Shown piece after piece: positions 3,869 through 50,087 of a DNA stretch of 64,000 nucleotides (within the stretch, counting starts at the first letter, position 1; the number at the start of each line of letters is the position of its first letter). Source of the stretch: Bacteroidales bacterium (GTDB lineage Bacteria; Bacteroidota; Bacteroidia; Bacteroidales; WCHB1-69); assembly GCA_016288655.1 (NCBI GenBank), contig JAEEKX010000003.1, forward strand, positions 6,037 to 70,036, written 5' to 3'. The notes under the pieces are model-generated. The model saw only the letters and a list, made by a program, of their open reading frames with translations. It had not been told where the DNA came from and did no database searches. The position numbers and the translations under genes were made by a program.

Positions 3869-4060
3869 ATCTTCAAATCTTTCAAATCTTTCAATTATTT
3901 GATACTCACTTCGTTCGCATTTGAGCTCGCTGCGCGAGCATTTGCAGATTTGTTGCTCACTTCGTTCGCATTAATAATCTTTCAAATCTTTCAAATCTTT
4001 CAAATCTTTCAAATCTTCAATCTCTCAAATCTTTCAAATCTTCAATCTCTCAAATCCCTC
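3869..4060 (-). repeat. Single copy of the composite repeat: one 86-bp triple-hairpin module (3893-3978) flanked by 8/9-nt TTTCAAATC/TCTCAAATC tandem units
   Basis: Near-identical reverse complement of the modules at 21491-22034. Confidence 0.95.
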
Positions 4061-4742
4061 CATTTCCTGTCATCTCCCAATGTATCGGTTCTATGCCATT
4101 TTTTAGCAGAATCTCGTTGGTTTTGGAGAAGTGTTTGCAGCCGAAGAAACCGCGGTAGGCCGACAAGGGTGAGGGGTGGGGCGCCATCAGCACGTAGTGG
4201 CGGGAGGTGTCGATAAGTTGCACTTTGGCTTGGGCGTAGGAGCCCCACAGCAGGAATACCAAACCGTTGCGTTTTTCCGACAGCCGTTGGATGGCGGCAT
4301 CGGTGAACAGTTCCCAGCCGTGGCGTTGGTGGGAACCGGCGAGGTGTGCGCGCACCGTGAGCGTGGCATTCAGCAGCAGCACGCCCTGCCGTGCCCAACC
4401 CTCCAAGTTGCCGGTTTGCGGTATGGGCATCCCGAGGTCGGTGTGCAGTTCCTGGAAAATGTTGACCAGCGAGGGCGGGAACTTCGTGCCGGGCTGCACC
4501 GAAAAGCACAGTCCGTGCGCCTGACCCGGCTCATGATAGGGATCCTGCCCGATAATCACCACCTTCACTTTATCGAACGGCGTGAGGTTGAAAGCGTTGA
4601 AGATCAGCGGGCCGGGCGGATAGACCGCATACTGCTGCTTTTCGGCCACCAAAAAACTCTTCAGTTCCGCAAAGTAGGGTGCGGCGAACTGGTCGGCCAA
4701 CTCGCGCTTCCAAGATTCTTCGATGACGGGGTTGATGGTCAT
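4050..4742 (-). CDS. ung: Uracil-DNA glycosylase (family 1)
   Basis: GQDPYH, GLCFSV, LLLN and HPSPLS motifs. Confidence 0.97.
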
Positions 4743-21042: not shown

Positions 21043-21076
21043 TTTTCTATTGATTTTTTATGCCTGCAAAAATACA

Positions 21077-21110
21077 TAAAAAAACAACGGCGATTCACAT
21101 CGCCGTTGAT
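21077..21110 (-). terminator. Intrinsic terminator just upstream of the thiL promoter
   Basis: Minus strand TCAACGGCGATGTGAATCGCCGTTG followed by a T-tract. Confidence 0.7.
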
Positions 21111-21115
21111 AACCA

Positions 21116-21175
21116 TTAACCTTTAATGATACGTAAAGGATCTCTCCTTTTGTTGTTCACTTGTCTCTTACGCAT
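21116..21175 (-). CDS. Putative 19-aa basic small peptide MRKRQVNNKRRDPLRIIKG
   Basis: Read by eye: ATG at 21175 to TAA at 21116, immediately followed by the terminator. Below the ORF-track cutoff. Confidence 0.35.
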   Translation of the reverse strand: MRKRQVNNKRRDPLRIIKG

Positions 21176-21296
21176 GTTATAGACCAATGTTACAAAATTT
21201 TGAAAATTTTTTACGCATCACTATATTATACAACTGAAAAACCACAAAAATGTTGCCTGAGAGGGAAAAAAGAGAAGATATTGACATTTGCTGGGG

Positions 21297-22061
21297 GCTC
21301 GCTGCGCGAGAATTTGGGTACACGATAGAGGACGGTTGGAGATTGGGGAGATTGGGAAGATTTGAGAGATTTGAAGATTTGAAAGATTTGAGAGGTTTGA
21401 GAGATTTGAAGATTTGAGAGATTTGAGAGATTTGAAAGATTTGAGAGATTTGAGAGATTTGAGAGATTTGAAAGATTGAAGATTTGAAAGATTATTAATG
21501 CGAACGAAGTGAGTATCAAATCTGCAAATGCGAGCGCAGCGAGCTCGAATGCGAACGAAGAGAGTATCAAATAATTGAGGGATTTGAGAGATTTGAAAGA
21601 TTTGAAGATTTGAAAGATTATTAATGCGAACGAAGTGAGTATCAAATCTGCAAATGCGAACGCAGCGAGCTCGAATACGAACGAAGTGAGTATCAAATAA
21701 TTGAAAGATTTGAAGATTTGAGAGATTATTAATGCGAACGAAGAGAGAATCAAATCTGCAAATGCGAGCGTAGCGAGCTCAAATGCGAACGAAGTGAGTA
21801 TCAAATAATTGAGAGATTTGAAAGATTTGAGAGATTTGAGAGATTATTAATGCGAACGAAGAGAGTATCAAATCTGCAAATGCGAGTGCAGCGAGCTCAA
21901 ATACGAACGAAGTGAGTATCAAATAATTGAGAGATTTGAGAGATTTGAAGATTTGAAAGATTATTAATGCGAACGAAGAGAGAATCAAATCTGCAAATGC
22001 ACGCGCAGCGAGCTCGAATACGAACGAAGTGAGCAGAATCCCAAATCCGAGCGCAGCGAGC
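21297..22061 (+). repeat. Composite repeat array: five 86-bp modules (last truncated) separated and preceded by GATTTGAGA/GATTTGAAA/GATTTGAA runs, with imperfect terminal inverted repeats
   Basis: Modules ATTATTAATGCGAACGAAGWGAG...AAATAATT start at 21491, 21617, 21725, 21843 and 21960. Inverted repeats at 21297-21318 and 22040-22061. Confidence 0.95.
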
Positions 22062-22187
22062 AGAATCCCAAAATCTTTGCGAATTCGTGATATTATTCCA
22101 AAAAAAATTCGTACTTTAGCGGCCGTGATATGTAAAAAATCAAAATATTGATAATCAACCTATTAAAAAACTTAAATTCTAAACATT

Positions 22188-22409
22188 ATGGCATTTAAAG
22201 GAGCTTTAGTCATTGACACGGAAAAGTGCAAGGGTTGTGGCGTCTGCATCACCGGGTGCCCGAACCAGTGCATCGCGCTTTCCAAACATGTAAATGCGAA
22301 GGGTTACAACTACCTTGAGATGGTCCAGGAGGACAAGTGCATTGGCTGTGCCAGTTGCGCGGTGATCTGTCCCGACGGCGTGATTGAGGTCTATCGTGCG
22401 AAGGAGTAA
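22188..22409 (+). CDS. 2x[4Fe-4S] ferredoxin, delta subunit of 2-oxoacid:ferredoxin oxidoreductase
   Basis: CKGCGVC...CP and CIGCASC...CP motifs; first gene of the operon. Confidence 0.93.
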   Translation: MAFKGALVIDTEKCKGCGVCITGCPNQCIALSKHVNAKGYNYLEMVQEDKCIGCASCAVICPDGVIEVYRAKE

Positions 22410-47769: not shown

Positions 47770-47830
47770 AACTTTTAACTTTCAACTTTCAACTTTTAAC
47801 TTTTAACTTTTAACTTTTAACTTTCAACTC
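47770..47830 (+). repeat. Heptamer tandem repeat (AACTTTY) x8 plus a partial unit
   Basis: Seen directly; ends 4 nt before the ATG at 47835. Confidence 0.95.
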
Positions 47831-49709: not shown

Positions 49710-50087
49710 GTGGCGATATTTTACATTAATTTGCGTAATTTTGCGGCGCAACAGACGGAGATGACGGAAGAGATGCGGACATGGCTCAAGTTGCTGAAGG
49801 AGATGCCGTATATGGATGAAAGCGACTATGCCGGGCAGCCGGAGTTCTTCCAAGAGCTGATGGACGAATGCAGAATATCAAAATTGGATACCATGGAAAA
49901 AGCAAATTACGAAAAGAGCGTATTGGAGTACGAGGACGTGCAGGATGCCATGTCGTGTGCCCGTGCTGAGGGCAGGGAAGAAGCACTGCTCAGTACCGCT
50001 CGCAAGTTATTAGAATTGGGAGTTTCATTTTCTGACATCGTCAAAGCTACCGGTTTGAGCGAAGAGCAGGTAAGAGAACTGAAATAA
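49710..50087 (+). pseudogene. C-terminal remnant of an Rpn/PD-(D/E)XK 'transposase'-family protein
   Basis: TDKVAIFYINLRNF (equivalent to DKL.F.YIEL.KF), W..LLK and the EGREE...AR.L..G....I..ATGLS.E.V tail. An in-frame stop at 49632 leaves no N-terminal nuclease domain. Confidence 0.75.

Follow-up and report, generated by a model that had tools for sequence, protein, structure and literature searches.

The repeat array between thiL and the vor operon of genome G000 is probably, though far from certainly, the gene-less and secondarily amplified remnant of a hairpin-bounded cassette for a four-helix-bundle gene, and it is non-coding DNA. G000 is the genome under study (2.26 Mb, 50 contigs, 93% complete) and holds the window, which is the whole stretch of 64,000 nucleotides that was analysed; G001 to G018 are comparison genomes of the genus. 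Both arms of the array are homologous between G000 and G001, and the gene is absent in G000. Filled, degenerate and empty versions of the vor slot exist within the genus, and the 86-nt module has spread into unit runs at other loci. The cassette arms are made of two bricks: 8/9-nt units without C on one strand (GATTTGARA), and REP-like hairpins of ~25 nt, here called S. The features of this repeat family in the window are the following.

21292..21318, no strand assigned: left terminal arm, palindrome GCTCGC TGC GCGAG plus ATTTGGG, which is a reverse-oriented S; pairs with 22040-22070
21339..21490 (152 nt), plus strand: leading unit run, ~17 units of 8/9 nt without C (Tandem Repeats Finder and tokenising); homologous to a shorter run in G001
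21491..21576, plus strand: module 1 (86 nt; S1, S2, S1'); homologous to the single module of G001
21577..21616, plus strand: linker 1, four units (tokenising)
21617..21702, plus strand: module 2, 83/86 identical to module 1
21703..21724, plus strand: linker 2, two units (tokenising)
21725..21810, plus strand: module 3 (repeat finder, tokenising, alignment)
21811..21842, plus strand: linker 3, three units (tokenising)
21843..21928, plus strand: module 4 (repeat finder, tokenising, alignment)
21929..21959, plus strand: linker 4, three units (tokenising)
21960..22033, plus strand: module 5, "truncated"; the final S is aligned to the first S of the right arm in G001
22034..22075, plus strand: right arm, reverse-type units AATCCCAAATCC and AATCCCAAAATC around one S; pairs with the left arm
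3871..4057, minus strand: second copy in the window, a unit run, one module (3891-3978) and a short unit run, between a uracil-DNA glycosylase gene and a DUF2461 gene

The repeat finder placed five copies of the 86-nt module in the assembly (family D2), in register, starting at 21491, 21617, 21725, 21843 and 21960 and spaced by 126, 108, 118 and 117 nt, which are the same starts and periods that had been read from the sequence alone. Tandem Repeats Finder reported, with score 212, a 9-nt unit repeated 17.7 times at 21339-21493, besides longer periods of 108, 126 and 234 (scores 620, 500 and 866); the last corresponds to two modules and fits duplication of module pairs. Modules 1-4 were identical to each other at 80-83 of 86 positions, and module 5 diverges past ~74 nt. 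Tokenising resolved the linkers into the 8/9-nt units GATTTGAGA, GATTTGAAA and GATTTGAA, with 4, 2, 3 and 3 units in linkers 1-4. Their order was GAGA-type, GAAA, GAA, GAAA in linker 1; GAA, GAGA in linker 2; GAAA, GAGA, GAGA in linker 3; and GAGA, GAA, GAAA in linker 4. The sequence-only reading had described the linkers as short units whose order and number differ every time, preceded by about 150 bp of such units; both statements agree with our tokenising and with the 152-nt run, and the additional variants in the leading run (GATTGGGGA, GATTGGGAA, GGTTTGAGA and GATTGAA) were not listed there. The units are head to tail and orthologous spacers differ in unit number (G001, G018, G014), as in a micro- or minisatellite (VNTR).

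Each module consists of three S submodules of ~25 nt, with AATGCGAGCGCAGCGAGCTCG in the centre and a copy of AATGCGAACGAAGTGAGTATCAAAT on each side. The 15 S of the modules all point the same way, and a reversed S is found only in the left-edge hairpin, which has a counterpart at the matching position in G001 and G018. The ends of the array (21297-21318 and 22040-22061) form a 22-nt inverted repeat, I1, with 86% complementarity (repeat finder), which was absent from the sequence-only reading. Folding of 21290-22080 paired these ends as the closing stem on either strand, in the MFE structure as well as the centroid, with z = -2.7 on the plus and -5.4 on the minus strand (20 shuffles per strand); this terminal stem, of 22-27 bp, still closes the element. 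The module itself has short inverted ends, ATTATT/AATAAT, of 6 nt only. Clear target-site duplication was not seen at the module ends or the array ends.

The left neighbour is thiL on the minus strand (TIGR01379, 207 bits, cut-off 184), and the right neighbour is a four-subunit 2-oxoacid:ferredoxin oxidoreductase operon with the ferredoxin subunit first and a VorB-type alpha subunit (NF005507, 528 bits). It had been stated that the array fills this intergenic region. The flanking genes were confirmed. The array takes ~780 of the 1145 nt between thiL and vorD, and the rest is a conserved terminator-bearing element by thiL and a conserved vorD-proximal region. No open reading frame with PF05635 or TIGR02436 is present in 21043-22187. 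The only long frame, of 192 aa (21226-21804, minus strand), passes through the repeats without a Pfam match, and a coding reading was rejected.

The earlier statement was that the window has no cas, transposase or RAYT gene. A Pfam scan of the 56 window ORFs found no cas gene or RAYT, and neither these nor a transposase gene lie beside the array. At 49710-50084 (plus strand) there is a 125-aa C-terminal fragment of an Rpn/PDDEXK_2 "putative transposase" (Pfam 28.0 bits against a cut-off of 27.4), which stays below the NCBIfam cut-off (35.6 against 52.1). Rfam gave 16 weak matches, none in reach of its gathering score; the best, Esr41 (27.5 against 102), lay on the thiL-side terminator. A known RNA family was rejected on this result.

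On the minus strand at 21073-21180, between the thiL start (21042) and the array, we observed an element of ~95-110 nt, on the strand of thiL, which ends with a strong terminator-like hairpin and a T run ~35 nt upstream of the thiL start. G001 and G018 have it in near-identical form; in G003 and G009 it is conserved too, and one change in the stem is made on both sides. Possible readings are a small RNA or a leader of thiL. Its Rfam matches (Esr41, FopS and Bacteroides-1) are all sub-threshold, and the TPP riboswitch is not among them.

For comparison of the slot, 18 matched genomes including G000 were used, and the vorD start was recognisable in 13 of them. G001, G014, G005 and G013 have a four-helix-bundle gene of 130-153 aa in the vor slot, which lies just upstream of the promoter region of vorD, between arms of S, unit runs or both. 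The slot protein of G001 belongs to the "23S rRNA intervening-sequence protein" family (PF05635 and TIGR02436, 106.8 bits, cut-off 24). This cassette in the slot of sister species does not figure in the sequence-only reading, which had suggested a search of orthologous thiL-vor loci for empty sites. Such sites exist: in G003 and G009, thiL and the conserved leader-like element lie directly beside the vorD-proximal region, and the slot of G007 is empty in an alternative left-neighbour context. Between these states, G018 carries a degenerate, internally deleted copy, G000 the arms only, and G012 two S submodules and nothing more. In G006, G016 and G004 the neighbours are different ones and S is absent. 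The slot of G005, G013 and G014 has S arrays with periods of 38-49 nt instead.

When G000 and G001 are aligned pairwise, homology is seen on the left in the hairpin, the unit run and module 1 with its trailing units, and on the right in the last two S and the vorD-proximal region; between the aligned arms there is the gene in G001 and modules 2-5 in G000. Module 5 is the likely recombination joint, because the S at its end aligns to the first S in the right arm of G001. It stops exactly at this point, as would be expected after recombination between same-orientation S flanking the gene. A vor tree was built from 2.4 kb of DNA with 15 rows (G015 was dropped as it had no sequence, and G005 and G004, with ~130 nt on the contig, were left out), and filled and empty sites were scattered over it. 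As the slot proteins are orthologous, ancestral presence with repeated loss is the simpler reading, but the direction comes from the tree of one locus, and repeated insertion into the slot may have occurred instead. The only PF05635 gene of G000 lies elsewhere, without such flanks. A cassette-type four-helix-bundle gene was not found in this 93% complete genome, where unassembled copies could be missed.

Including the vor-side array, the family has four loci in G000. The module at the ung locus in the window (3891-3978) is identical to the vor-slot module of G001 at 86 of 86 positions. The third locus, on another contig, is a run, three S and a run, between genes which from reading of their translations we take to be sufE-like and an ABC-F ATPase, and the fourth, on the same contig as this sufE-side locus, is five tandem 38-nt S units. 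At the three loci outside the vor slot, neither a gene nor an inverted arm has left a trace; therefore the family can exist without a cassette. Within the genus, the module is present in 7 of 18 other species, and it is present in none of 42 genomes of other genera (0/18 of the same family, 0/24 of other families of the order). This bears out the earlier view of a non-autonomous family, which is dispersed and non-coding.

The 25-nt three-unit pattern, searched with up to 2 mismatches, gave 31+4 overlapping matches in G000 and the control pattern, the same letters in reversed reading, 0+0, so that the pattern is not due to chance. Within the genus, 6 of 18 species had it; among 102 genomes from the family's other genera there was one, with a single 2-mismatch match. 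The control had no match within the genus. In G142, from another genus of the family, the control pattern gave 32+21 matches, so a mirror-image unit family exists there; elsewhere only one match was seen, in G025. The exact S1 submodule pattern retrieved one record from the genome contig collection (L125, a Bacteroidales MAG), and the plasmid and phage collections had no match to the array, and a plasmid or phage origin was rejected. A 16-nt stretch of the unit run found no match in a full-text literature search.

Of 110 arrays with a period of 6-20 in G000, 41 are A/T-rich and without C or without G, with periods mostly of 7-9 and 14. The GATTTGARA run is one of these 41, a context absent from the sequence-only reading. 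Other examples are AGTTAAA, AAGTTGA, AAATTGA and GAGTTGAAAGTTGA, up to 220 nt long; in the window, AACTTTT is repeated 8.6 times at 47770-47829, just upstream of an NA37-family gene. These arrays resemble cassette arms, although G000 has no cassette-type four-helix-bundle gene. By reading of frames, unit runs fill the operon junctions completely at the sufE-side locus (L007 1395-1700, contig C42) and at 4050-4075 of the window. Upstream genes end in or at the first units of the run, and at the sufE-side locus the TGA of GATTTGA is the stop codon. The downstream gene starts ~10 nt or less from the last unit (L007; window 4050-4075).

Orthologous spacers differ in runs and modules. One spacer has unit runs of 68 nt in G001 against 50 nt in G018; at another, the run of G018 comes with a three-S module and that of G001 without one. 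The sufE to ABC-F spacer contains 2-4 units in G001 and G018, whereas that of G000 has 282 nt including S submodules. At the ung-side spacer, G000 has a run and the module, and G018 just a run; G001, G012 and G006 have palindromes of the GTAG type there, and the short units of G016 and G008 are different ones. The genes flanking the ung locus are 80-88% identical between G000 and G001, while the ung-locus module equals the vor-slot module of G001. An identical module at non-orthologous loci of two species means that modules move or are copied between unit runs, perhaps between species as well as within them. Two module types exist. Every module is flanked by runs homologous to runs elsewhere, and for this reason gene conversion is sufficient; a dedicated enzyme for module spread was not found. 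The proposal that the family has its "own expansion mechanism" is not supported; slippage and unequal exchange between unit runs suffice for the pattern.

The layout of an upstream arm, a four-helix-bundle gene and a complementary downstream arm is general beyond the vor slot. Most of 13 displayed cassette-type genes of the genus have a C-less unit run upstream and, by eye, a reverse-complement run downstream, each with its own unit. In 7 of 16 cases no downstream arm made a better duplex with the upstream arm than the cognate one, which ranked 15 of 16 for the vor cassette of G014 and for one further cassette. An order-wide sample comprised 30 loci from 28 genomes of different families (two genomes with two loci), of which 3 were set aside because the start codon was missing or the flanks were short. 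There, a 6-mer repeated upstream had its reverse complement repeated downstream in 20 of 27 loci against 52 of 702 non-cognate pairs. The inverted 6-mer test failed at 7 of the 27, direct rather than inverted sharing was seen at four loci, and the cognate arm was the best duplex partner in 9 of 27.

A general tie of four-helix-bundle genes to the S/GATTTGARA repeats was rejected, for in a scan of 30 loci for these arms only 3 have them, all in the vor slot. A single S-motif match at one fourth four-helix-bundle locus was taken for chance; other cassettes carry their own units. One spacer, flanked by genes which by reading look like serC and serA, has a four-helix-bundle gene in G001, G018, G005 and G014 (L041, L038, L049, L058), with four different arm units, GTTAAGAA, GTTGATTT, GAGTTAAGA and GTGAAGTT. 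Four units in one spacer mean that the arms turn over fast yet stay mutually complementary. In the literature searched, the cassette design was found for rRNA intervening sequences only, and repeat-armed cassettes outside rRNA were not found. Genes of this family are known wedged between cas genes (PMC3936711), and the part of that paper available to us does not mention flanking repeats.

Several known classes were tried for the array. It is not a CRISPR: the linkers are unit runs and not unique spacers, the 56 window ORFs include no cas gene, and CRISPR-DR27 reached 19-20 bits against a threshold of 35. Of MITE features, there is the terminal inverted repeat of the vor-side array (22 nt, 86%), and no inverted repeat at the other three loci; an IS with array-type ends was not found in the window.

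G000 has two RAYT genes of the Y1_Tnp type (PF01797, 153-159 aa, at C22:4330-4671 and C1:521-862), both flanked by GTAG-tagged REPs of the type GTAGCGTGCC...GGCACGC, whose sequence is unrelated to S or the units. At C22:3700-5330 and C1:340-1060, the RAYT genes lie inside arrays of these REPs and of a second GC-rich hairpin type; the tagged REPs and RAYT are a separate REP system in G000. S has a layout of 6+3/4+6. In sister species many S are perfect hairpins, for example GCTCAC GCA GTGAGC, with 12 instances of 6/6 pairs and the stems GCTCAC/GTGAGC, GCTCGC/GCGAGC, GTTCGC/GCGAAC, GCGGGC/GCCCGC and GTCCGC/GCGGAC. In the G000 array, S are mostly imperfect palindromes with 4 Watson-Crick pairs (outer GC kept) and a central GA/AG. 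The GTAG or CGTC tag is absent from the S submodules, which are preceded by AAATG/TAATG and followed by A.CAAAT.

With no tag, with S head to tail instead of alternating or in inverted doublets, and with other REPs at the RAYT genes, the S submodules fail the tests for RAYT-associated REP/BIME/REPIN and are REP-like in form. From the BIME/REPIN-like label given earlier, the mosaic of GC-rich hairpin-like submodules and short linkers stands, and the link to REPIN and RAYT falls, as the REPs differ and S are few.

Since the window comes from a 50-contig MAG, short-read metagenome assembly might have inflated the array or put its parts in a wrong order, and one or two modules might be the true state, which we consider improbable. 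Contigs of four other runs, RNA-library contigs included, were aligned to the locus; the runs holding the flanks are labelled goat, sheep and bovine gut metagenomes. Contigs of run X3 reproduced internal junctions without differences at 21177-21387, 21484-21627, 21836-21930 and 21971-22190, among which 21484-21627 joins module 1 to module 2 and 21971-22190 joins module 5 to the unique flank. No contig among the four runs spans the array, so five is the assembled copy number and not a verified one. Two weak, low-depth joints with short sides in one run, a skip of 310 nt and a step back of 316 nt, hint at other copy numbers. The modules differ at 3-6 positions each, their variants and the distinct linkers recur exactly in contigs of other runs, and the unit composition is unique to each linker, all of which argues against an artefact; the family and the slot comparison are moreover independent of copy number. 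The RNA-library contigs were short pieces only, of depth 3-10, and gave no usable evidence for transcription; one of them (21489-21578, 7 differences) fits the module variant of the other locus.

The main rival sees in the 86-nt module, either alone or together with its runs, a non-autonomous element of MITE/REPIN-like kind that is mobile independently of the cassette and is mobilised in trans by, for example, the cassette's four-helix-bundle protein, a RAYT or a host recombinase; the vor slot would be one amplified insertion. We regard it as unlikely. In its favour, the identical module sits at non-orthologous loci in species whose genes differ by 12-20%, modules occur within unit runs where sister species have the run alone, and there are the two module types and the short ATTATT/AATAAT inverted ends. 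Among the places listed, species with a GATTTGARA-armed slot gene have more unit-run loci (at least ~12 in G001, 8-9 in G014, ~15 in G018) than those without one (at least 3 each in G000, G016 and G012), but these counts come from few related, non-independent genomes. An inverted end of just 6 nt and no clear target-site duplication do not speak for transposition, and direct repeats flank the modules, so that presence and absence are possible by deletion or gene conversion alone. The copy number is also very low (four G000 loci), the REPs at the G000 RAYT genes differ from S and are GTAG-tagged, and plasmid and phage collections are without a match.

The array could also be kept for its neighbours, as a structured spacer or insulator between the divergent promoters of the thiL side and vor, or as a contingency-type repeat that processes or stabilises RNA and tunes vor expression by its length, which seems hardly likely to us. 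In every repeat-bearing species the repeats lie directly upstream of the conserved vorD-proximal region, the 38-49-nt S arrays of G005, G013 and G014 are in the same place, and the loop of ~720 nt is near that of G001 with its gene; moreover, BrickBuilt of Porphyromonas gingivalis has promoter activity, according to the part of the source available (PMC4596501). Yet the same vor genes do with a clean empty site in three species or without S in three more, the remnant in G018 is much shorter, the numbers of units and modules are unconserved, and there is no family-level RNA match. We prefer the reading as a cassette remnant amplified after gene loss. A further conjecture, doubtful in our view and less likely than an independent module, is that the unit runs and S modules are the cis ends of a selfish cassette system and the four-helix-bundle protein its trans-acting factor.

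Comparisons with known systems follow those parts of the cited papers that were available. Among the closest are the ORF-bearing 23S rRNA intervening sequences (IVS) of Coxiella burnetii and Leptospira, in which complementary termini form a stem that is cut by RNase III around an S23p ORF (PMC4990558). Like these, the array is a small and presumably selfish element whose complementary termini form a stem, found here by folding; the loop in sister species carries a PF05635/TIGR02436 gene, of the same family; and filled and empty sites are sporadic among relatives, ORF-less forms of IVS being known too. Unlike them, it lies between thiL and vorD and not in a helix of 23S rRNA, and its arms are 8/9-nt tandem units and REP-like hairpins instead of a plain 28-bp stem. 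In G000 the loop has amplified repeats in place of the ORF. Excision by RNase III has been shown for the rRNA elements.

REP, BIME and REPIN sequences (PMC2817692, PMC3116915, PMC3733652) are also intergenic mosaics of short GC-rich (quasi-)palindromes with short linkers, dispersed, clustered and restricted to a lineage. They are however tagged and alternating, whereas our array lacks GTAG/CGTC and has S head to tail; they number hundreds against four loci here, where the linkers are microsatellites; and the RAYT genes of G000 are flanked by other, GTAG-tagged REPs. BrickBuilt, the minisatellite-containing MITE of P. gingivalis (PMC4596501), was compared by its description only. It shares with the array a Bacteroidales host, an always intergenic position, a limited host range, a tandem array inside parts with small inverted-repeat ends, and copies of tens or fewer. 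Its single unit, of 23 nt, is repeated without spacers, and it has leader and tail subunits besides; the array has two nested periods (8/9 nt and 108-126 nt) without leader or tail. The array is tied to the slot of a four-helix-bundle gene, and the abstract on BrickBuilt reports no such tie.

If the array is such a remnant, the gene would have been lost by recombination between same-orientation S submodules on either side of it, and unequal exchange between the flanking unit runs would have amplified "module + linker" to about five copies. Replication slippage may alter the number of 8/9-nt units in each linker. Modules may be brought to new unit runs by homology-driven copying, with the runs as homology arms. 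The element is presumably selfish or neutral today, and if transcribed, it would fold as a long stem-loop similar to an rRNA intervening sequence.

Were the four-helix-bundle protein indeed the trans-acting factor, the gene-less runs and modules found across operon junctions would relate to the cassette as MITEs do to IS elements: non-autonomous copies that depend for spread or maintenance on the cognate protein, encoded in the vor slot of sister species. The array would then be an orphaned copy that has run away, all cassette-type genes having been lost from G000, and the very large "23S rRNA intervening-sequence protein" family would gain a concrete role in propagating repeat-armed hairpin elements.

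With the cassette-remnant reading, an unexplained array becomes a datable state of a small element, whose slot is filled, degenerate, gene-less and amplified, or empty within one genus. This view may also help to explain the many A/T-rich arrays of 7-9-nt units, without C or G on one strand, in the intergenic spacers of these genomes. It means that, once the gene is gone, the arms of a cassette can still persist and amplify and can seed further intergenic spacers, which bears on the question of which part of the cassette is the unit of selection.
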